Below are positions 42 through 12,105 of a stretch of DNA of 64,000 bases, piece by piece (position 1 is the first letter of the stretch; each line of letters starts with the position of its first letter). The stretch covers positions 544,001 to 608,000 of the forward strand of contig CM000434.1 in the NCBI GenBank assembly GCA_000165345.1, given 5' to 3'. The position numbers were made by a program, and so were the translations under genes. Under the pieces are notes generated by a model. That model saw only the letters and a list, made by a program, of their open reading frames with translations. It was not told the DNA's origin and ran no database searches.

Positions 42-3000
42 ATGATCAAACCAATTAGTTGGTATGAAACTTATTTCTCAAAATTTGGAAGATGTAATAT
101 GTTTATTAATCAGAATGGTGAGCTTTATTTTGTTAATGATAGGAAAAACCAGAGAGTTATGACCGAAAAAATAAAAATAGTTGTAAGTTTAATCCCACTT
201 AAGGAAGGAGTAATAATAGTTGGGTATGACAGAATTGAGACGAAGTTAATGATAAATATGGCCATATTAGGCCATCCACTTGAACATCCAACCAAGATTG
301 TTCTAAAAAGTTCAAGAAATTTATTTGATAAGAGTAATGAATCAAAATTCAACAAGGTTGTGATATGGGGTTCAGTAGACTTTCCATTAATAATGGTTTA
401 TGATCAAATAGAAAAAAATCACACTTTATATGTCTATAGTTATTTTAATAATAATTCATCACTAATTATTGAGTCCATTTGGGAAGATTCTTCAAAATAT
501 TCAAAATGTGCAGAAACAATTTTTATTTCAAGAACTATTTTTGATAACAATTTTATGATTTCATACCACATACCTTCTGCTTCAGAACTTAAACTAGTCA
601 TTTTTTCTGAAAGCGAATTTAATGATGTTTGCTATGGGAAAAAATCTATTATTGAAGACAAAGAACTAACATTACAAACGATACATAATGTGAAAGATGT
701 GGTACCAATTACGTTTGGGCACCAGCAAGAAAAGCATGAGCTATTTGGAATTCATTATTTATTTGGATTTAATTTTGTTAAGTCAAATCAACTTTTTAAA
801 CAAGAAAAATCCCAAGAATTACCTGTTTTTTCCTTAATCTTAATAGATACGGGAATGCTTTTACTTTATTCAGGTTCAGAGCTAATTATAAATGTAAATA
901 TTACAAGTGAGCAAATAGGAGATTTTGAATTATTGGGAATTAGCTCTGGAATTTCAAATAATTTTGATGCACTAGTCAAATTGAACGGTAATCATTCCAA
1001 TAAAGATCATTTGTTGGGAATTAGATGCTCGATTAATCTACTCCCTGAAGATTTTTTAGTCCAAATAATAACAAAACTACTAATAAGAATTTCGAATAAA
1101 GAATTTTCAGTAAGCCTAATTAGGGAGATTTTATTGAATAGATCAAATAAACATTGGGATATTTTACGCAAAATATTATTAGGTGAGACTAAAGATATTA
1201 ATACTGAACAAGAGTTAAAGTTTTCGAACATGAGCTCAAATGGTTCAATTGAATCTCCGATGTCAAATGGAGTGTATAAAAAGATAAAGTTATTTTCAGA
1301 TAAAGATGTTTGCTCAAATAATAAGTCAAAAACATGGCAAATATTATCAAAGTTTTGGGCAAGTTATTTGGAGAAAAATAAAAAATCACCGTTTGATAGA
1401 ATTGAATTCTCAAATTTAATTTCTAAGGGAATAATTCCTCATGAATTTTTAGAGGGGAAAAAGTATGAATATACTAATTATTCAAACAGTGGATACCAAA
1501 ATTTAGAGTTTAAGGCCAGTCCACAGTGTATGTACATTTTACATGCACTTTATGAAGAACTAAGCTTGTTCCCTCAATTTAATGCTTTAGATAATTACCA
1601 AAACCGATTGATGAAGGATATTTTAATTCCTCTTTCAAAGAAACTACTCTTATCTAATTATTATGAATACTACCAATTTTTAGATTCTTCATTTAATTTC
1701 ATAAATGAAATAAAAGACGATTCAAATTTTTCAGATTGGAGCTTTCCTCCAGTATTATTAGACAAACTATATTTTTTTACAAGGTTTTCCAAGAATAATA
1801 AAAAAGACATTTATTTTAAAGTAATTGAGAAACACTTTCCTTTGCAATGCTTTACTATAAAACTTTATGAACAATTACTCAATAGATCTAAAAACGGAGA
1901 GATAATTGATTTAATTTCTAAAGTTGGGATTACTAACACTATATTACCCATTTTAAGCCCAATTATTTCATTTCCAATTGAGAAATTTCTAAATAGCTAC
2001 TCGAATAATGTTCCCAACTTGAGTTTCGATGATAACAAATACTTTTTGTTAGGAAGACTAGACATGCTAAGCTACGCAAAAAATATTAACTCATCTTACT
2101 CTAGTGTTAACCTTAAAATTGCAAGTGGGTCAGATAACATTGCAGCATCTGTTCTCCCACATGGAAGGAACACTGTAGATGACCAAAAAAGTATGTTGGA
2201 AAATTTGCAGGCCTATTATAAGAATAAAGTGGACCCATTCAGAATAACTTCAGCCGAAAAAAGAACGATAATAGAAATATGGAAAAATGATCTGACTGAA
2301 TATTCAGATATTGGATCCTTTGAATTGTCCTATAAATGGTGTTTTCAAGTATTCTCCTATGACAATAGATATTGCGATGCACTGGAGCTACTTTCACTAA
2401 AAAACCCTCCTCAAATATTACTTCAACGCTCTTCAGGTGCATACCCTATTGATGAAGAATCTTGGGATGAGTTTCAAAGGCAAAGAGTAGTAGATGCGGT
2501 ACAATTAGTTTACACTAGCTTACTTGGAAGAGCAGCATGTACATTTGGCGGATCTTCATTTGATATTTCAATAAATAAAATAAACCGTCCCGTATTTGTA
2601 AATAAAATTTATGAAGTTGCGTCCAACTCTTTGATAAGCGTTGACATAGAGAGATTTAAAGAAGTTTGCTTTGACATATCAGTTTGGAATGAATTTTATA
2701 TGGGAGTTACTCAATCCCTGAATTATTGCTACCCATACTCTAAATTACCTCAGGATGGTTTTAACAAAAATAAAAAGCTCTGGATAATTGAGCAGATGGA
2801 TACATTCTCTTCTCAAGAAGATATTCCATTTATATCTGGTTTTTTATATGGGATCTCATTAAGTGGATTCTTTAAAGCGGACAAATCTGATTCAATAACA
2901 ACCTTCCCTTTAATTTTGGAGCCAAAAGAGATTTATAAAATTCTAGAGAATGATGGTCAATCAATAAAAACTTGTTCGATGTTGTTAGCAACCGCTATTT

Positions 3001-5753
3001 CTGCCCTCAAATCTCAAAATACTACACTTTTAAGGCTTTATTTAATGCATATTCCCAGCATACTTCCAAGTATTTATACAAAGTCTCTTCAAATATCTAG
3101 CATAAGTCAATATTCGGCAATAACTTCAATTGGGCTTTTGTTTTCCCAAAGCCGTAGTCATCAAGTCATAGAAATATTATTTTCAGAGTTTCTAAGAACA
3201 GTCTCTGATACTGATGACCAGGCCTCAATTAATCCAAACATTTACTCAATATCTGTTGCAGTTTCTCTCGGAATGGTGCTCCAACCAAATGAGGAATCAA
3301 TTAACACATCCTTTAATACAATGATAGAAGATGACATTACTAACGCTTTGTTAAGCTGTATTTCGGGAAATAAGCTTCCTAAATTTCTTTCGAGCCTTGC
3401 ATCTGGTCCAAATCTTGAGCATTATACAGAATTTTCTGGACTTGAAAGGTTCAAGTACCAAAATGAAAATATGGATGTGGGAAATAATTCAAAATCAAAT
3501 AGTAGTTTATCTTCTGGTACAAACAAATTCTCAAACTCTAGTAAAAATTACTGTTCTAAAATTGTGGACTCAACTTTGCTTGCTATCCCTGCGGCACTTT
3601 CTCTTTCAATCATGCATATTAGAAGTAAAAATAAATCAATTTCAAGTTCAATTTCTATACCATTTAGTCGGCCAGAAGAACTAGTAAATTATAGGCCGGA
3701 GGTACTTATTTTTATGTCTTTAGCAAAAGTTGTAATTGAATGGGAAGAAAGTAGCATTCCAAACAAGGATTTCATTTGTAGTCAAATCCCTAGTTACCTC
3801 TGGTACCTCCCTTCGGACAAAATCTTCCCTTTTCCAATTACTTCAAACAAATGCTCAGAGATCGAACCACAAGTTAATTCAAAGCTAATGCACTGCATTT
3901 CTATGGGAACTTTAGATTGGATTCACTGTATCCAAGCACGTATTGCTATTCTCTCTGGGATAATTTGGGGGCTAGGCATAGTGTTCGCAGGGAAAAGGAA
4001 TATCGAATTAAAATATACAACCACAACAATACTTGAATACTTAGATAGAATTCCTTTAATTCAAATGCCTCTTAGTATTGCATCTACAATTAGAGATAAG
4101 TCTATCTGTAGTACACACATTACAATTGACAGGTGGTCAAAGGAGCTTTGTATTAGAGTTTGTCTTACTAGCGCATCTTTATGTTTTTCAGGAAGTGGTG
4201 ATAAACAAATTTTGATGCAAATAAAATATTTCAGAGCGCAATTATTGGAGTCTGCTCAGTTATTATGGACTAGTTCAACTGCTATTTCACCATTCAGCAT
4301 ATTTTCCATACCACCAATTGAACATGTCCATAGTCAATTAATGGCGTATAACAATGCTCTTGGGTTTCTTTTCTTGTCTGCCGGGCATTTTTCCTTTAGC
4401 AATAAAGACAAACTTGGTTCGACATTTTTAATATTAGCAACACACCCAATATATCCCAAAGATTCTTCTGATATTAGTACTCCAGGAATAATATTCCAAC
4501 CATTGAGATATCTTTTCATTTCAGCGATGAACTACGGTCGAAGAGTTGTTATCCCGAAACTTGTAACTTGCTCGCCGGAACCTTTAAATGATAGTTGCGA
4601 TTTTAGTGGTATTATTTCAGAAGAAAAAATATATGTCCCCATCTCAGTCGAGCTTAAATCAGGCAAAGTTCAATTTCAAAGTGGGAGGACAGAATATTAC
4701 ATTCTTCCTACAGTTTTACCAGATTGGGAAGACATAATAAATATTAAAGTACTAGGAGATACTTACTGCCCAATTTTAATTGATTTTAATAAAGATAAAG
4801 ATACTAATTGTTATCAAAGGCTAATAAAAGGGGAACTTTGGGTTCAAACTAAAAACAGAAATAATGGTTATTGCTGGAATGAGGCAAACCACATCATCAA
4901 TCAAGTTAAAAATTACCAGTTTCATAATTTCCAGATATATAATTTTTATGACAATCAATTAAATAATAAGCAAATGCTCTATAAATATTATGGGCCAAAC
5001 AATAAAATTCTTTCTGCTAATTCAAATGTTTTCAGTCGATGTGACGAAATAAGCGATTTATACAAGAATTTCTCGCATACGCTAGTGCTGGAAGAAAATA
5101 AGTCGTTTTATCGTAAAATGAATAATAAAGAAATGCATAATAAAAAAGCTGGTTGTGCACCATGGCGTGGTGCTATTTTAAACAATTATATAGATCAAAT
5201 TCTTTCAACTTGGAATAAGATCAACCAGGATGGGAATGGATGTGAAATTCTATTATCTCCTGAAATTATAAAGATATTGAGAATCACACTTAACATAGAT
5301 AATGACAAAAAACTACAGACAATACTTCTAAATATTCATCGTAGGCTGCAAGCACAAATGAGCGTTTTAATTCGTTGTGTTAGATACTACTACGGCGCAC
5401 ACAATGGAACAAGAATTCCATCCTGCGATGAGAAACAGTCACTAAGGTTATTTCTTTCTCTAAATGGTATGCCACTAGCTTCCCATTTTAACTTTATTAT
5501 GAAAAAAAAAATTGAATCAAACACAAAGATCGATACTCTGCTTAGAAAAGATTATAAAAAATACGAGGAGATCATTGCTCCTATATTAATTATGGAACTC
5601 CCTACATTATCTTCTTTAGGGCTTCAAATTCTAAAAGTGTTTATATACGAACGCTATTTTAAAGCTCAAAGTGCAAGCTCGCAATCAATAGAAGCTCAAC
5701 AACAAATAAAATTAATGCTTACTCGTATATTTTCTTCTAAAAATTACTTTTAG
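42..5753 (+). CDS. Very large (1903 aa) protein, tentatively anaphase-promoting complex subunit 1 (APC1)-like. The frame stays open upstream to window position 3, so the gene may be 5'-partial.
   Basis: Long uninterrupted ORF. The C-terminal third carries PC-repeat-like Gly/Ala/Leu motifs (AILSGIIWGLGIVFAG, ALGFLFLSAGHFSF). Size and architecture fit APC1. No in-frame stop between nt 3 and the ATG at 42. Confidence 0.55.
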   Translation: MIKPISWYETYFSKFGRCNMFINQNGELYFVNDRKNQRVMTEKIKIVVSLIPLKEGVIIVGYDRIETKLMINMAILGHPLEHPTKIVLKSSRNLFDKSNESKFNKVVIWGSVDFPLIMVYDQIEKNHTLYVYSYFNNNSSLIIESIWEDSSKYSKCAETIFISRTIFDNNFMISYHIPSASELKLVIFSESEFNDVCYGKKSIIEDKELTLQTIHNVKDVVPITFGHQQEKHELFGIHYLFGFNFVKSNQLFKQEKSQELPVFSLILIDTGMLLLYSGSELIINVNITSEQIGDFELLGISSGISNNFDALVKLNGNHSNKDHLLGIRCSINLLPEDFLVQIITKLLIRISNKEFSVSLIREILLNRSNKHWDILRKILLGETKDINTEQELKFSNMSSNGSIESPMSNGVYKKIKLFSDKDVCSNNKSKTWQILSKFWASYLEKNKKSPFDRIEFSNLISKGIIPHEFLEGKKYEYTNYSNSGYQNLEFKASPQCMYILHALYEELSLFPQFNALDNYQNRLMKDILIPLSKKLLLSNYYEYYQFLDSSFNFINEIKDDSNFSDWSFPPVLLDKLYFFTRFSKNNKKDIYFKVIEKHFPLQCFTIKLYEQLLNRSKNGEIIDLISKVGITNTILPILSPIISFPIEKFLNSYSNNVPNLSFDDNKYFLLGRLDMLSYAKNINSSYSSVNLKIASGSDNIAASVLPHGRNTVDDQKSMLENLQAYYKNKVDPFRITSAEKRTIIEIWKNDLTEYSDIGSFELSYKWCFQVFSYDNRYCDALELLSLKNPPQILLQRSSGAYPIDEESWDEFQRQRVVDAVQLVYTSLLGRAACTFGGSSFDISINKINRPVFVNKIYEVASNSLISVDIERFKEVCFDISVWNEFYMGVTQSLNYCYPYSKLPQDGFNKNKKLWIIEQMDTFSSQEDIPFISGFLYGISLSGFFKADKSDSITTFPLILEPKEIYKILENDGQSIKTCSMLLATAISALKSQNTTLLRLYLMHIPSILPSIYTKSLQISSISQYSAITSIGLLFSQSRSHQVIEILFSEFLRTVSDTDDQASINPNIYSISVAVSLGMVLQPNEESINTSFNTMIEDDITNALLSCISGNKLPKFLSSLASGPNLEHYTEFSGLERFKYQNENMDVGNNSKSNSSLSSGTNKFSNSSKNYCSKIVDSTLLAIPAALSLSIMHIRSKNKSISSSISIPFSRPEELVNYRPEVLIFMSLAKVVIEWEESSIPNKDFICSQIPSYLWYLPSDKIFPFPITSNKCSEIEPQVNSKLMHCISMGTLDWIHCIQARIAILSGIIWGLGIVFAGKRNIELKYTTTTILEYLDRIPLIQMPLSIASTIRDKSICSTHITIDRWSKELCIRVCLTSASLCFSGSGDKQILMQIKYFRAQLLESAQLLWTSSTAISPFSIFSIPPIEHVHSQLMAYNNALGFLFLSAGHFSFSNKDKLGSTFLILATHPIYPKDSSDISTPGIIFQPLRYLFISAMNYGRRVVIPKLVTCSPEPLNDSCDFSGIISEEKIYVPISVELKSGKVQFQSGRTEYYILPTVLPDWEDIINIKVLGDTYCPILIDFNKDKDTNCYQRLIKGELWVQTKNRNNGYCWNEANHIINQVKNYQFHNFQIYNFYDNQLNNKQMLYKYYGPNNKILSANSNVFSRCDEISDLYKNFSHTLVLEENKSFYRKMNNKEMHNKKAGCAPWRGAILNNYIDQILSTWNKINQDGNGCEILLSPEIIKILRITLNIDNDKKLQTILLNIHRRLQAQMSVLIRCVRYYYGAHNGTRIPSCDEKQSLRLFLSLNGMPLASHFNFIMKKKIESNTKIDTLLRKDYKKYEEIIAPILIMELPTLSSLGLQILKVFIYERYFKAQSASSQSIEAQQQIKLMLTRIFSSKNYF

Positions 5754-5763
5754 CTCAATCCTG

Positions 5764-5797
<34 letters not shown>

Positions 5798-5964: not shown

Positions 5965-7041
5965 ATGAATGTTTTGCTGTTATTATTATATCTATCCTTG
6001 ATTTACTGCTCCTACTGTTCAATTCAAAGAGCAGGGGTGAAGCAAATAAATACTTTAACACCTCAAAGCATAGAACGTAAAGAAGGAACGATAATTGATC
6101 AAAATTCTAGAAACTTTTGCCAGTATACGGACTTTCGTTGGTCGAGCTGCATTTGTGATAGGAATATTATGATTGGTGTTCGATCTTTGATAAAAGAGCA
6201 GACAGAAAATTGCTCTCCCGAAGTTACAATTATTGAACTTCCGTGTGACAAGTCTTCTTGCAATCAAAAACTTTTAACTACATCAGATGGTGTTGCATGC
6301 CCTTCGCTTGCAAATATTGATGGAGTATGTGACCATTCCAAAAATTTTTTGACTGATGTTATGGCAAAATCATTTGAAATGTGCAGATCATTTTGCTCCG
6401 TAATGGTAAATTGTACGCACTTTATTATGGATACAAAAAACTCAAGATGTAAACTTTACTCTGGAAATAAAATATGTGGTAAAGAGGCTCCTGGAATTAC
6501 AACAGGCCTAGCTGGCTTCGACACAAACCCATGTTCAGAATGTACAGTTGGTATATGGGGCGGCTTATCAGAGTGCAAAAAACCCGTAGACTTTGATCCT
6601 AATCTATTAGGGTGTGGAGAGGCTGTCCGCAGAAGGATTTCCAATGGTGATGTTGATGCAGACTGTCCGTACAGGACTGAGACTTGGACCTGCTCATTGC
6701 CAGGGCAAACCTGTGATATGAGAACTGAAATATCTGATATTTATCTAAAATCAAAACCAGAAAATGATGATAAATCAGAGTCTTATAAATTATTGGAAAT
6801 TTCTCTGATTTTTGCAGGAATTGTCACAGGGATTTTAATTTTTGTACCAACTTCACTTATCTTTCCTAAAATTGGCCAATTTTTTTATGGAAAAAGGTTG
6901 TATTCTTTGCTGTCTGGGAATGAGTTAGATTCAAGCCGAACTCCTGTAAATGAAACGATTAACAATCCGGATGACTATGAAGAATGGGAAGAGGACATGA
7001 ATGTAGAGTATGAAACGGAATTCACAATAGATAATAGATAG
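5965..7041 (+). CDS. Secreted Cys-rich type I membrane protein with PAN/Apple-like and TSP1-like modules, a single TM and an acidic Trp-containing cytoplasmic tail (TRAP/TSP-family adhesin-like).
   Basis: N-terminal signal peptide MNVLLLLLYLSLIYCSYC. Apple-like segment CRSFCSVMVNCTHF..RCKLY. TSP1-like WGGLSEC...GCGEAVRRR. TM LLEISLIFAGIVTGILIFV. Acidic tail ...DDYEEWEEDMNVEYETEF. Confidence 0.6.
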   Translation: MNVLLLLLYLSLIYCSYCSIQRAGVKQINTLTPQSIERKEGTIIDQNSRNFCQYTDFRWSSCICDRNIMIGVRSLIKEQTENCSPEVTIIELPCDKSSCNQKLLTTSDGVACPSLANIDGVCDHSKNFLTDVMAKSFEMCRSFCSVMVNCTHFIMDTKNSRCKLYSGNKICGKEAPGITTGLAGFDTNPCSECTVGIWGGLSECKKPVDFDPNLLGCGEAVRRRISNGDVDADCPYRTETWTCSLPGQTCDMRTEISDIYLKSKPENDDKSESYKLLEISLIFAGIVTGILIFVPTSLIFPKIGQFFYGKRLYSLLSGNELDSSRTPVNETINNPDDYEEWEEDMNVEYETEFTIDNR

Positions 7042-7140: not shown

Positions 7141-10100
7141 TTATAGTCTTCTACGCGTTCTTTTTCCTATCCTGTTAATTATTTCTTCATCAGAATCGAT
7201 ATTACTAGAATCAATAACTTTTATTCTATCTTCAAGGCCAATTTCTTGGAGTAGGATATTTGTATTTGTTTGAATAATATATCTCGGTAATCTTTTACTG
7301 AAGATTAATCTGAGTAGTTCATATTCAATCGAACGAATACCTTGAACTAAATTATTATTATTAATATTGAAGTGCTCGCAATTTGACCTCACTAAAAATA
7401 TATCAAATACTAAACTCTCTAACCTTCTGTAATAATTATTTCGAATTCTATTTATTATTGAAGTGAAACTAAATGGAAGAGGAATTTCTTTCCAATAGTG
7501 CATTACCCATTCCTGATTTGAAAATCCATTTTTTGATATATTTTTTTTTGAAAAAAAGGGAATTGGATATTTAAAGAATTCAACTACTGACAATGGATTA
7601 TTTTGCCCATTTTGAGTTGTCATCCAACAAAAAATTTTTATTAGATCATTGCTCGCCTCCAAATTGTTTGGGAGAGACTTTTTGTCAGGTACAGTTTCAT
7701 AAATTTCCCATGGACTGACCATTAAAGAGTTATTGTTACTTTCTTCCTGCTTCCAAGTGACTTCAATGGATTCCCAAATAAAATTTTGCTTAATATTTCT
7801 TATCAATATTTCGTGCCATTGATTATCAATAAATATATGATTTTCTTGTCCAACCCTTAGTCTGTGTTCTAAATTATGTATTCCCTTTTCAACCTCGTCT
7901 TCTAAAACCAAGTAATCAGGTCCATCATTCGGAGCGCATCTTATTTGCCAATAAACATGTTTTCCTGAAGTCAATTCCGTTAAAAACGTTAGTATAGCCT
8001 TAATAGAATGTTCTGTATCACTTGGAAATGCATAGGAAATATTAATTAATTTGCACTTTATAAATTCAAATTTCCTATTTGACCTTCTGGGTAGCCTTTT
8101 ATTTTCAGTAGCAATTTCTAGCATATTTTTAAAGAATATATCATCAAGTCCTGAGCAAATATAAGCATTTGGGAAAAAATAAAGGTAGTCATTTACTTGA
8201 GGTACATATCCTGCTGAAACTTCATCCGCTAATAGCCAAGATCTATTACAATGATTGTGCCCAGTATTATTTATCATATTTTCTCTCTTTGGACAATATG
8301 GAACATTTGATTGCTTGAGATAAATGCATTTAGGGCAAAAAAATAAGTAAAATTGCATAATATCACACCAATACATGTTTGACTCGCGAGGAGATATAAA
8401 ACTTGAGTTTACTGATTCTGGAAAAGAATGATATGCTAGCGCTGTGCAATGATAATGAAATTGACGATTGCATCTATTACCCTGACAGAGAATAGATGCG
8501 CCATAATCGTGGCAGTAGCTGCATGTTCCAATAAGCTTTGGAAATTTAACAATTTTCGAATCAAAAAATGTTGATGATAAACCATCTTTTGGGAGAGGTG
8601 GAGTTCCTTGAGAAGGATTATAAACTCTTCTCATGATATCGAATAAATTTGTGTAAACTTGATCATTAATGAGCTCCCATTGAAGAAAAGGAATTGTAAT
8701 TAGGCATCTTGAATGTAAGTAAAAACTACCTTCGCCAAAGTTATCATTTTCTTGAATAAATTTTGCATTTCTCTCTGGTCTATGCGTACTATAAAAATAA
8801 TCAAATGGTCCGATTAATGGCCCCAGATCAATGGATCCATTTACTCCATGAAGAATTGGCCTGATATTGTGGCTATTAAACTCAATCTCAGATTTAATTA
8901 AATATTTATAGCCAATAACTGTCGTGCTTGATTTCTTACATAGTTTGCAAACTAATAAATTATTGACTTCTTGCTCTTCTGAATCCGGCATCCAAATTGT
9001 ATCGAGATTTGAAAATGCGTAATATCTGAATTCAATTTCTGGTACGACTTCAGAGTCGGAATCTTGAACGTTAATTAGTCTATTCTTAATTTTACGGCGA
9101 GACCTCGTAATACTTTTTGAACCTCTAATCTCATTATATAAAGAATCTTCCGAAGTTAAATCGGAATCGTAGTCATTTTCGCCAAGGCTGGAATCATCGG
9201 AAGATGAAGAGCTTCCAGTATCTGAAATCGACGGAGAACGCCTACTAATCATTCTGAGCCTTCTATTTGTATTAGTAGTACTCGAGTTATTTATATCAAA
9301 ATCCTCATCATTTGAAAAGTCACTCGAATAACTTTGAGCTTCTACACTGCTTGTTTCATCATTATTGGTTTGGGAAGAAACCCACGTCAATTCTTCATTA
9401 ATATTACTTATTGTATTTCTAGATTGAAATGCATTTGAGTTGTTTGAAACTGTAGGGCTGCCATTAAGTGGATTTTTATCAATTTCAAGCATTTTCTTTC
9501 TATAAATTGATCTTTTTTTAGCCTTTTCTAAATATATTTCAGAGTTTAAATTTAAAATTTTATATGTGCTTAGAGTTTTATCAAGCTGCGGATAAAATGG
9601 AATTCTGCTGTTAAGTAATTCATTTCTTGTATTATTTTTCGAAGTTTTATTTCCAAGTGAAGAAAACATTGGGATCGGAGGTTGAATATCCTCTGGATAC
9701 ATTCTTTTATTTCTGTCAACTATAACTGATCTGGGTATCGTATATATCGGTCTCCTTAAGTTCTGATCTATCCATCCAAATGTATCATCCCTTAGAATTT
9801 CTGAAAAGTCGTTTAAGAAAAATTGCTCAGGAAAGGAATATCTGTATGTCTGATTTAGAACTTGCTGATTTAAATCTCCTTTATTGCATATATCATAAAT
9901 CTCAAAAGAGCCGTATTTTTGAGAAACTACGAAACTCAACCCATTTTTTATCCAAACGCCATTTAAATAAGGATTTTTTGTATTTTTATGTTCAAATAAG
10001 ATATTTGAATTGTTTTTAAATTTAAAATCATTTAGTTGGTTAAGTTTCGAGTTGGATATTACAAAAATAACTCCATTATATGTCAACGACAAAACTATTC

Positions 10101-12105
10101 CAGGGGATACTGGGTGAGGAATTAGACATGCAATTCGTGAGCAGACGCCTGGAAGAACTACATCTAGAAATCTTTCACCATAATTTCTTGAAAAATAAGA
10201 AATGCAGCATTCAATGCAACTTACAAGTGTGGAGTTTCTAGTTCTTCTCAACATTCCTTTAGATGTCACAGATTGAGCAATTAAAATGATCGAATCATCG
10301 CATGACCACTGTATACTATCTATAAATTGGACGAAATTTGAGGAACTATCAGTTCCAATAGATTTGTCATTTTCTTTATTTGGTGAGCTATCTTTCACAA
10401 CGAATCTTGAAGTTCTTACGGGATTCCTACGTAATAGTGAATTCTCATCCATTGATCCGCTTCCTACATAATCTGAGTCATCATCTGATAGACTTTCAGT
10501 TGGAGATTTTTCAGTAGCTTTTTTTATTGAATTATTCTTTTTCTTGGAATATGAATCACTGTTTATTCGGTCGGAAATATATGTATAAAGATTTGTCTGG
10601 TTATAAATACTTAGATTAGAAAATATCCACATAATAATTGTGCCATCATCAGAAGCAGTAACTAAATCATGTGAATTATTTGCAAATGAAACGTCTGGAT
10701 GTTCGTTGTGCTTTTGTGGCATATTGATCAAATTAATTCCACTCTTAGAGTGGGAATGTTCTAAAGGAATCATGAAAACTAATGAGTATCCTTGCATATC
10801 GTTTTTTTTTTGTATTGAAATAACTTCATTCGAAATATTTTTTCCAGAAATGTTAATTTGTATTTCTTCTGTTGAACTCAAGGACTGTAAAGAGGCACCA
10901 ACTGAAAAAAAGACATAGTTTTTAAGGTTTTCATCGGATGAAGATCCATGGTTAGCGATAGGATTTAAGCAAATATCAAATGCTTTTGGGGATAGTGGAA
11001 ATATATCAATCTTATAAACTGGAGGGGCTTTATAAAATAATGATTGCTCTCTTTCAAATGAACCTGGAGATTTAGATAAGCTTCCATAACGTTTAAAAAT
11101 ACTTTGGAAACTATTTAGTAGAACTTCTGGAAATTCTCTTCGTTTCATTAAAGCTAAATGGTACAAAGATCCATGGATAAAAAGATCAGAAACCTTATAA
11201 ACTGTTATGATTGCATTATCACCTGCAGAAATTAACATTTCAGACTCTTGAAATATATCATCATTATTCAGCTTAATGCTATGTTTTGAATATGCAAATC
11301 TAACAAATGTCAATCTGTCTGTATTTTCAATAATTGCCATTGGAACCCAATCATTTCCATATACCAAAGTTAACAAGAGTTGGCCCTTACCACAACAAGA
11401 TGCTAATAAAGCATTGCAAGAGTTAACATCAAGGTCGATTATATCCCCAGTGTGCTTCCTTACAGAAGCTAAAAGACTTCCCGTAAATGTGTTCCAGAGT
11501 CTAATCATTCCATCATCGCCTCCAGATATTAATACACTTCCTGTTTTATCTCTTTTAATAACATATACGCTTGCCGGTTCTCCTCCTACTCCAAATTCAG
11601 AGTCTTCAATATGTTGATGAGCATATATAAAATTTGATAGGATAAACCTGCCACAAAAGTTAGTTAGAAGATGAGAATATTTCATATTCGAAAGCATTAA
11701 TTTGTCACTAACGCCATGTTTTAAGCTCCTCAAATTTAGATAAGTTGATCTAGAACAGATATCTTTAATATTTTCAATGAAAGTTGAGTGGCCAATCACT
11801 TCATTCTTCAAATATTGAATGGTATTTAAAAAACTATCTTGATTAAAAATTAAATTCTCTGTTCCTACTATATTATTCTTATTAAATTTACACAACTCGA
11901 TAAATGAAGAAAGTAACTTGATAAACCCAAAAATATTATCTTGAAGCCCATTTGTTAGTTCTTCATATGATATTTGTGTTTCAGTGCCATCATAATTTAT
12001 TTTAGTAGGTATTTTCGAAATTGATTTAAACTTTTCAAAAACTCTGTTTGAAACATCGTCAAAACCATATTCTTTTAGGATATAACAAATATAATATGGC
12101 TCCAT
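7141..12105 (-). CDS. 1654-aa WD40-repeat protein with an N-terminal propeller resembling the BRWD/PHIP/WDR9 family. A C-terminal PHD-like zinc finger is present; no bromodomain is recognised.
   Basis: WD repeats such as VYVIKRDKTGSVLISGGDDGMIRLWNTFTGSLLASVRKHTGDIIDLDVN align with the first propeller blades of PHIP/BRWD1. Cys/His cluster CSYCHDYGASILCQGNRCNRQFHYHC. Confidence 0.5.
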   Translation of the reverse strand: MEPYYICYILKEYGFDDVSNRVFEKFKSISKIPTKINYDGTETQISYEELTNGLQDNIFGFIKLLSSFIELCKFNKNNIVGTENLIFNQDSFLNTIQYLKNEVIGHSTFIENIKDICSRSTYLNLRSLKHGVSDKLMLSNMKYSHLLTNFCGRFILSNFIYAHQHIEDSEFGVGGEPASVYVIKRDKTGSVLISGGDDGMIRLWNTFTGSLLASVRKHTGDIIDLDVNSCNALLASCCGKGQLLLTLVYGNDWVPMAIIENTDRLTFVRFAYSKHSIKLNNDDIFQESEMLISAGDNAIITVYKVSDLFIHGSLYHLALMKRREFPEVLLNSFQSIFKRYGSLSKSPGSFEREQSLFYKAPPVYKIDIFPLSPKAFDICLNPIANHGSSSDENLKNYVFFSVGASLQSLSSTEEIQINISGKNISNEVISIQKKNDMQGYSLVFMIPLEHSHSKSGINLINMPQKHNEHPDVSFANNSHDLVTASDDGTIIMWIFSNLSIYNQTNLYTYISDRINSDSYSKKKNNSIKKATEKSPTESLSDDDSDYVGSGSMDENSLLRRNPVRTSRFVVKDSSPNKENDKSIGTDSSSNFVQFIDSIQWSCDDSIILIAQSVTSKGMLRRTRNSTLVSCIECCISYFSRNYGERFLDVVLPGVCSRIACLIPHPVSPGIVLSLTYNGVIFVISNSKLNQLNDFKFKNNSNILFEHKNTKNPYLNGVWIKNGLSFVVSQKYGSFEIYDICNKGDLNQQVLNQTYRYSFPEQFFLNDFSEILRDDTFGWIDQNLRRPIYTIPRSVIVDRNKRMYPEDIQPPIPMFSSLGNKTSKNNTRNELLNSRIPFYPQLDKTLSTYKILNLNSEIYLEKAKKRSIYRKKMLEIDKNPLNGSPTVSNNSNAFQSRNTISNINEELTWVSSQTNNDETSSVEAQSYSSDFSNDEDFDINNSSTTNTNRRLRMISRRSPSISDTGSSSSSDDSSLGENDYDSDLTSEDSLYNEIRGSKSITRSRRKIKNRLINVQDSDSEVVPEIEFRYYAFSNLDTIWMPDSEEQEVNNLLVCKLCKKSSTTVIGYKYLIKSEIEFNSHNIRPILHGVNGSIDLGPLIGPFDYFYSTHRPERNAKFIQENDNFGEGSFYLHSRCLITIPFLQWELINDQVYTNLFDIMRRVYNPSQGTPPLPKDGLSSTFFDSKIVKFPKLIGTCSYCHDYGASILCQGNRCNRQFHYHCTALAYHSFPESVNSSFISPRESNMYWCDIMQFYLFFCPKCIYLKQSNVPYCPKRENMINNTGHNHCNRSWLLADEVSAGYVPQVNDYLYFFPNAYICSGLDDIFFKNMLEIATENKRLPRRSNRKFEFIKCKLINISYAFPSDTEHSIKAILTFLTELTSGKHVYWQIRCAPNDGPDYLVLEDEVEKGIHNLEHRLRVGQENHIFIDNQWHEILIRNIKQNFIWESIEVTWKQEESNNNSLMVSPWEIYETVPDKKSLPNNLEASNDLIKIFCWMTTQNGQNNPLSVVEFFKYPIPFFSKKNISKNGFSNQEWVMHYWKEIPLPFSFTSIINRIRNNYYRRLESLVFDIFLVRSNCEHFNINNNNLVQGIRSIEYELLRLIFSKRLPRYIIQTNTNILLQEIGLEDRIKVIDSSNIDSDEEIINRIGKRTRRRL

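Follow-up and report, generated by a model that had tools for sequence, protein, structure and literature searches.

CpTSP6 (cgd6_2310) of Cryptosporidium parvum, a type I membrane protein with a highly conserved transmembrane helix and C-terminal motif

Introduction

The gliding-motility adhesins of the Plasmodium TRAP family, among them TRAP, CTRP, MTRAP, TLP, and S6, and Toxoplasma MIC2 share a signal peptide, one or more thrombospondin repeats (TSRs), a single transmembrane (TM) helix, and an acidic cytoplasmic tail with a Trp residue. The TRAP family is united by the penultimate or C-terminal position of this Trp, as in the tail ends of PfTRAP (...EENEWN) and PbTRAP (...EDNDWN), and a von Willebrand factor A (vWA) domain is not present in every family member. 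Aldolase was formerly the candidate for linking such tails to the parasite motor, but motility and invasion have been shown to proceed without it, and the connector now proposed is GAC. The tail of one Toxoplasma MIC is directed to micronemes by tyrosine motifs of the EIEYE and YxxPhi types. Here, we compare these systems with CpTSP6 (cgd6_2310), a Cryptosporidium parvum gene located at positions 5965-7041 of a 64,000-nt stretch of contig CM000434.1 (assembly GCA_000165345.1, positions 544,001 to 608,000), which is referred to below as the window.

CpTSP6 belongs to the family CpTSP1-12, which is said to go back to Deng et al. in 2002, the year in which the name CpTSP6 was reportedly given. 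Within this family, CpTSP1 and CpTSP6 have been singled out as the type I membrane proteins of a PAN-TSR subgroup (CpTSP1 and CpTSP3-6) and likened to MIC2 and TRAP (John et al. 2023, PMC10034466). Published work already covers the gene, the family to which it belongs, its TSR-PAN-TSR-TM architecture, and the TRAP/MIC2 analogy. A close counterpart is CpTSP1, also known as TRAP-C1 (cgd1_3500), in which PAN and TSR modules likewise alternate and which shares the type I membrane topology, but which is double the length of CpTSP6 (gene of 2064 nt) and has more TSRs that pass the normal criteria. TRAP-C1 is abundant in sporozoites, C-mannosylated, O-fucosylated, and found at the apical end, in the micronemes, and on the surface. 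CpTSP4 is micronemal and binds heparin. One paper describes CpTSP8 as the only localised CpTSP member as of 2023, while a 2025 review lists micronemal data for TRAP-C1, TSP8, and CpTSP4 only, together with a micronemal rhomboid protease, CpROM1, that has no known targets. C. parvum and C. hominis share conserved CpTSP proteins, which have been discussed as vaccine antigens.

Results and discussion

Identity and overall architecture of CpTSP6

The open reading frame (ORF) at 5965-7041 of the forward strand is the known C. parvum gene cgd6_2310, encoding CpTSP6, a member of the 12-member thrombospondin-repeat family. It forms a complete, intronless coding sequence with an ATG start and 358 codons plus a stop, which agrees with the published entry in its sequence, length, signal peptide, TM helix, and domain boundaries. 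The supplementary tables of two papers equate cgd6_2310 with CpTSP6, UniProt Q5CX66, and XP_627588, and the 358-aa product is encoded exactly on the C. parvum chromosome 6 records BX526834.1, CP029785.1, and CM109966.1. The neighbors in the chromosome 6 records also match those in the window, with an APC1-like gene on the upstream side and, downstream, a WD40/bromodomain gene in convergent orientation. A full-text literature search using the locus name cgd6_2310 matched no paper. An earlier note, made from the DNA alone, had called this 358-aa ORF, and both the ORF and all of the strings quoted from it are real.

Our analyses show CpTSP6 to consist of a signal peptide, three disulfide-rich modules with 20 conserved Cys, a short stalk, one TM helix, and a 57-residue acidic cytoplasmic tail. 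Kyte-Doolittle hydropathy detected exactly two hydrophobic segments, residues 1-21 and 273-304, fitting the signal peptide (1-18) and TM helix (279-300) of the published annotation. The signal peptide (MNVLLLLLYLSLIYCSYC, 5965..6018, forward strand) scores >1.7 on this scale, has small residues at -3 and -1 of the predicted cleavage site (S16 and C18, read off the sequence), and is entered as "signal peptide: yes" in the supplementary table of the second paper. The 2023 annotation continues with a TSR at residues 52-99, a PAN domain at 112-190, and a second TSR at 193-250 (John et al. 2023, PMC10034466). This TSR-PAN-TSR order is consistent with the present analyses, but is not independently proven by them. 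The type I topology, with a signal peptide, extracellular modules, and a single TM helix, is that of the TRAP family, and the vWA domain is absent. The architecture drawn up in the earlier note (signal peptide, PAN/Apple, TSR, TM helix, and acidic tail) was thus correct overall and in agreement with the published annotation, although its domain order held only from the PAN domain onward, as the N-terminal TSR (residues 52-99, FRWSSCIC...GVR) had been missed.

The membrane helix and the C-terminal motif are the most conserved parts of CpTSP6

Protein searches with CpTSP6 returned Cryptosporidium orthologues only, comprising 12 other sequences with 45-99% identity, such as those of C. hominis (99%), C. 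meleagridis (95%), C. ubiquitum (82%), and C. andersoni (47% by BLASTP, 45% in the alignment). A number of them carry the annotation "TSP1 domain-containing protein TSP6 precursor" or "CpTSP6 extracellular membrane-associated protein". We aligned all 13 sequences and calculated the mean identity of each region to C. parvum. The TM helix (92%) and the C-terminal 14 residues (89%) ranked highest, followed by the juxtamembrane stretch (84%), the PAN domain (78%), and the N- and C-terminal TSRs (TSR-N, 76%; TSR-C, 75%), with the tail linker at residues 320-334 far below (42%). Conservation in CpTSP6 is therefore highest in the TM helix and in VEYETEFT at the C-terminus, above any ectodomain module. 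The invariant positions include A284, G285, and T288 in the TM helix as well as W341 and E348-Y-E-T-E-F-T354 in the tail, and both the Ala-Gly pair and EYETEFT are kept even in C. andersoni, despite an overall identity of 45%. The ectodomain is constrained as well: 19 of its Cys are invariant, one more is nearly so, and its three modules together contain 68 invariant positions. Purifying selection, a negative Tajima's D, and a single segregating site in 32 isolates have been reported for CpTSP6 (John et al. 2023, PMC10034466).

The TM helix spans residues 279-300 (6799..6864, forward strand), with a hydropathy peak of 2.5. Its invariant A284-G285 pair (6814-6819) lies in the outer half of the helix, as in rhomboid-cleaved adhesins, and is a candidate rhomboid cleavage site. 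Such cleavage would be expected by analogy with MIC2/TRAP-type adhesins and from the presence of the micronemal CpROM1, which lacks known targets. As CpTSP6 and TRAP-C1 are both type I membrane proteins, they are candidates for linking host ligands to the parasite motor as well as for being rhomboid substrates.

The cytoplasmic tail (residues 302-358; 6868..7038, forward strand) contains 14 Asp/Glu versus 5 Lys/Arg. In order, it presents the conserved juxtamembrane stretch with Y313-SLL, which has the YxxPhi form; the variable linker; the acidic Trp motif PDDYEEWEED (residues 335-344; 6967-6996); and the near-invariant C-terminus MNVEYETEFTIDNR (residues 345-358; 6997-7038), all on the forward strand. 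Acidity is concentrated at the end, with 11 Asp/Glu and 1 Lys/Arg among the final 28 residues. The stretch DDYEEWEEDMNVEYETEF, which the earlier note had taken as a sub-terminal Trp in an acidic tail, is present at residues 336-353. The tail is indeed acidic and its Trp invariant, but W341 lies 17 residues from the C-terminus, and the corresponding distance is 17-21 residues in all 13 sequences. Furthermore, the 25-mer tails of PfTRAP and PbTRAP aligned to the CpTSP6 tail no better than shuffled peptides (z below 0). Because the Trp position differs and the TRAP tails align no better than shuffles, we regard the CpTSP6 and TRAP tails as alike in composition and in a local acidic-Trp motif, rather than by homology or position. 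A precedent for an extended C-terminus exists in MTRAP, which continues past its aldolase-binding motif. The penultimate or C-terminal Trp that marks the TRAP family is not found in CpTSP6, and we reject an "aldolase-binding tail" as a claim of membership in view of the position of the Trp, the unalignable TRAP tails, and the superseded aldolase model. Overall, the earlier note is partly supported: its architecture was largely right, its "sub-terminal Trp / aldolase class" was not. Two further motifs in the tail resemble known signals. The [IV]EYE core of VEYETEF is similar to EIEYE, and Y313-SLL is a YxxPhi motif, so that both are possible microneme sorting signals by analogy with the Toxoplasma MIC tail.

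A PAN/Apple domain flanked by putative degenerate TSRs

The central module of CpTSP6 (residues 112-190; 6298..6534, forward strand) has eight conserved Cys. Pfam PAN_1 (PF00024) matched residues 132-169 with an E-value of 2.4e-4 and a score of 21.3 bits, 0.1 bit short of the gathering score of 21.4, and was matched in 13/13 family members. A profile of the orthologous PAN sequences matched factor XI apple 4 (E = 4.4e-4), Sarcocystis SML-2, TgMIC4, and EtMIC5 in the PDB. Structure modeling was less informative, as only 13 close sequences are available and the models were therefore weak. The full-length AlphaFold2 model built from the 13-sequence alignment had a mean predicted local distance difference test (pLDDT) score of 40 and was unusable, while a model of the ectodomain alone reached a mean pLDDT of 52 and is suggestive only. 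A Foldseek search of the PDB with this ectodomain model yielded no match at E <= 0.001. Its top matches were SML-2, the N domain of hepatocyte growth factor, the apple domains of factor XI/kallikrein, and TgMIC4, all of them weak (E >= 0.013), and the list consisted mostly of two kinds of fold, PAN domains and TSRs. Taking this evidence together, we accept the central module as a PAN/Apple domain. The earlier note had proposed an Apple-like 4-Cys module, and the assignment stands with the amendment that four is the number of Cys in the core matched by Pfam. By profile and fold search, the module thus resembles the apicomplexan PAN lectins SML-2, MIC4, and MIC5 as well as the apple domains of factor XI and prekallikrein. 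SML-2, MIC4, and MIC5 are soluble multi-PAN proteins, whereas CpTSP6 has a single PAN domain between TSRs and is membrane-anchored. Likeness to these lectins only suggests that the CpTSP6 PAN domain may bind galactose.

We also ran an exhaustive hidden Markov model (HMM) search with the family profile against 1.84 billion representative proteins, which recovered the family itself and one protein with five PAN domains, but no TSR protein and no paralogue. Homology to TRAP or MIC2 was not detectable, and no homologue outside Cryptosporidium was found in this search. The sole non-family match (P0013, not in the window) is a protein of 490 aa with five strong PAN_1 domains (E = 6.5e-41), and it matches the PAN core of CpTSP6 only.

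The two flanking modules are far more diverged. TSR-N (residues 52-99; 6118..6261, forward strand) and TSR-C (residues 193-250; 6541..6714, forward strand) contain six Cys each and are assigned as degenerate TSRs, the latter of the spondin/TRAP-like type with a Cys before the Trp strand. TSR-C contains WGGLSEC at residues 198-204 and GCGEAVRRR at residues 216-224, such that the second Trp of the WxxW motif is replaced by Leu201 and an insert of 7-9 residues precedes the CG..R.R strand. Compared with the TRAP-C1 sequence CELGEWSSWSPCSVTCGCGTTTR, TSR-C likewise carries Leu at the site of the second Trp, together with a 7-residue insert ahead of the CG...R strand. The TSR-C pieces of three orthologues matched Pfam TSP1_spondin over profile positions 1-49 of 52 (E 0.003-0.04), although these matches are sub-threshold (18 bits versus 41), and the C. 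parvum piece yielded neither a TSP1_spondin match nor any match at a curated threshold. For the two domains named in the earlier note, Pfam was marginal for PAN_1 and gave no match for TSP_1, either in C. parvum CpTSP6 or in any orthologue. TSR-N had no sequence-profile match, the orthologue profiles of TSR-N and TSR-C both failed to match any PDB sequence, and a profile-profile comparison found no similarity between the two modules. Weak matches to PTN_MK_C, which we take to be a TSR-like domain, were obtained in six orthologues.

Further evidence comes from the CpTSP paralogues themselves. Ten C-mannosylated TSR peptides of CpTSP1-4, 7, and 8 have been determined by mass spectrometry (John et al. 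2023, PMC10034466), and we aligned each of them locally to CpTSP6. For 9/10, the best local alignment fell at residues 166-222, and in eight of these nine the Cys and Trp residues of the peptide were placed on C193, W198, and C204, while the ninth reached W198 and S202 only. The z-scores of single peptides ranged from 0.4 to 4.0, and the positional agreement is the stronger point. The tenth peptide, YTEWSAWSSCDC of TRAP-C1, aligned to YTDF-RWSSCIC at residues 54-64 with the same unusual C-x-C spacing, a score reached by 2/300 shuffles, so that TRAP-C1 and TSR-N share a WSSC-x-C signature. In the Foldseek results, the ectodomain model also matched TSR1 of F-spondin (TMt 0.56, rmsd 4.0 Å, 57 columns), semaphorin-5A, and properdin, with the low confidence of the model applying here as well. 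The degenerate TSP1 repeat proposed in the earlier note is thus consistent with the published TSR at 193-250 and with the peptide register, though not matched by Pfam TSP_1 in C. parvum. CpTSP6 retains a single WxxW/C motif for C-mannosylation, W59-S-S-C62 in TSR-N (residues 52-62 are encoded by 6118-6150), as the acceptor pattern of TSR-C is gone (W198-G-G-L201). The presence of only one motif and the loss of the TSR-C acceptor may partly explain why CpTSP6 is missing from the anti-C-mannosyl-Trp immunoprecipitation.

A proposed microneme-to-shedding route and its alternatives

From these results, we consider it probable (roughly 0.7) that CpTSP6 is a TRAP/MIC2-like type I adhesin acting along a microneme-to-shedding route. 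CpTSP6 would enter the secretory pathway, fold with ten disulfides, and possibly be C-mannosylated at W59, after which the tail tyrosine motifs, YSLL and the invariant VEYETEF, would sort it to the micronemes for release onto the zoite surface. There, the lectin-like PAN module and the basic strands of the TSRs may bind host glycans or glycosaminoglycans, with the acidic Trp tail forming the link to the actomyosin glideosome, for which the GAC connector, rather than aldolase, is the most plausible intermediary. Finally, a rhomboid protease would cleave the TM helix close to the invariant Ala284-Gly285 and so shed CpTSP6. CpTSP6 resembles the Plasmodium TRAP family and MIC2 in its signal peptide, TSRs, single TM helix, acidic Trp tail, Ala-Gly pair, and EIEYE-like tyrosine motif, but differs from them by having a PAN domain in place of the vWA/I domain, by the distance of its Trp from the end, and by its unalignable tail. 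Several observations weigh against this proposal. The Trp is not penultimate, and the TRAP tails show no alignment beyond that of shuffled peptides; neither TSR reaches any curated sequence threshold; the structure models are of low confidence, both at full length and for the ectodomain; and with Leu as the second Trp of the TSR-C Trp-Arg ladder, ligand binding could differ from that of canonical TSRs. In addition, nine TSPs were detected in the sporozoite proteome without CpTSP6 being one of them, it is missing from the C-mannosylated TSPs as well, and our literature search found no localisation, binding, cleavage, or knockout data for CpTSP6 itself.

The proteome result also bears upon the stage at which CpTSP6 might act. 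A role in merozoites or sexual stages, in a process other than gliding and comparable to that of Plasmodium MTRAP, would account for the failure to detect CpTSP6 in both the sporozoite proteome and the C-mannosyl immunoprecipitation. In a real-time PCR transcriptome of in vitro development, TSP6 belongs to the genes whose transcripts reach their peak at 24 h post-infection within the 2-24 h analysis. MTRAP itself is a small protein with two TSRs, an acidic Trp tail, and a C-terminal extension past its aldolase-binding motif, and it reportedly proved necessary for gamete egress and transmission, being cited as an essential transmission factor within the gametocyte egressome. TRAP-family proteins have also been increasingly assigned roles besides force transmission. 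However, absence from the proteome may simply reflect low abundance or a small number of tryptic peptides, as CpTSP6 is small, Cys-rich, and membrane-bound, and we regard a role restricted to these other stages as unlikely.

Conservation of the TM helix and tail above that of the ectodomain is also what might be expected of a membrane-anchored escorter or co-receptor, comparable to Toxoplasma MIC6, in which case the ectodomain of CpTSP6 would bind the soluble CpTSP3-5 and its TM helix and tail would sort and anchor the complex, without CpTSP6 being a primary adhesin. CpTSP3-5 have the same PAN-TSR string without a TM helix, soluble MICs depend upon membrane-anchored partners for microneme targeting, and such adhesins form complexes via their ectodomains (John et al., PMC10034466). 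Yet the interaction between CpTSP6 and CpTSP3-5 is putative, TRAP-C1 could equally be the anchor, and an ectodomain as strongly constrained as this one, with its 68 invariant positions, would fit direct ligand binding, leaving the escorter role improbable in our estimation. Least likely of the three alternatives, and very improbable, is that the TSR-like regions are unrelated Cys-rich linkers in a single-PAN membrane protein whose TRAP likeness is superficial, for although neither module matches Pfam TSP_1 (in any orthologue), a PDB sequence, or the other module, and no TSR protein was recovered among the 1.84 billion representatives, three orthologues have nearly full-length, albeit sub-threshold, TSP1_spondin matches, 10/10 proven paralogue TSR peptides land on the two modules, and the TSRs of F-spondin, Sema5A, and properdin appear alongside PAN domains in the fold search.

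Returning to the TRAP/MIC2-like adhesin, we further considered whether CpTSP6 might be something other than a redundant mini-TRAP. It would then carry a Cryptosporidium-specific module, formed by the Ala-Gly TM helix and the VEYETEFT motif past the acidic Trp, with a partner or sorting route unlike that of penultimate-Trp tails, would act at a non-sporozoite stage (merozoite or gamete), and would be a natural CpROM1 substrate. We view this combined proposal as rather doubtful. What is added here to the published description is descriptive. Two points are mildly new, namely that conservation is strongest in the TM helix and VEYETEFT and that in every orthologue the Trp sits away from the site set by the TRAP rule. 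Further, the tail does not align to TRAP tails, and the degenerate TSRs can be placed in register with paralogue peptides. For mutagenesis, the conserved TM helix and C-terminal motif would be a sensible place to start.

Genomic setting of CpTSP6

The window is AT-rich (GC ~33%) and densely filled with long unbroken ORFs. At a GC content of 33%, the stop probability is 0.074 per codon, or one per 13-14 codons, which puts the chance of a frame remaining open over 358 codons at ~1e-12 and the number of such ORFs expected on both strands of the whole window at ~1e-7. Two minus-strand ORFs with TTG starts inside CpTSP6 (6055-6267 and 6456-6644) were discarded as mechanical by-products.

Downstream of CpTSP6, the convergent gene at 7141-12105 (reverse strand) encodes 1654 aa with weak matches to a WD40 beta-propeller and a bromodomain. 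The stop codons of the two genes are 99 bp apart, and therefore their 3' untranslated regions must be either very short or overlapping. Upstream, the ORF at 42-5753 (forward strand), which covers 1903 aa in the window, matches PF27562 APC1_4th and PF21282 APC1_3rd of anaphase-promoting complex subunit 1. The models of this APC1-like gene differ at the 5' end: two assemblies annotate 2006 aa, whereas the older BX526834 record has 1764 aa. The 211-bp intergenic gap between the APC1-like gene and the CpTSP6 start codon contains a perfect (AT)15 microsatellite at 5766-5795, which could be a polymorphic marker.

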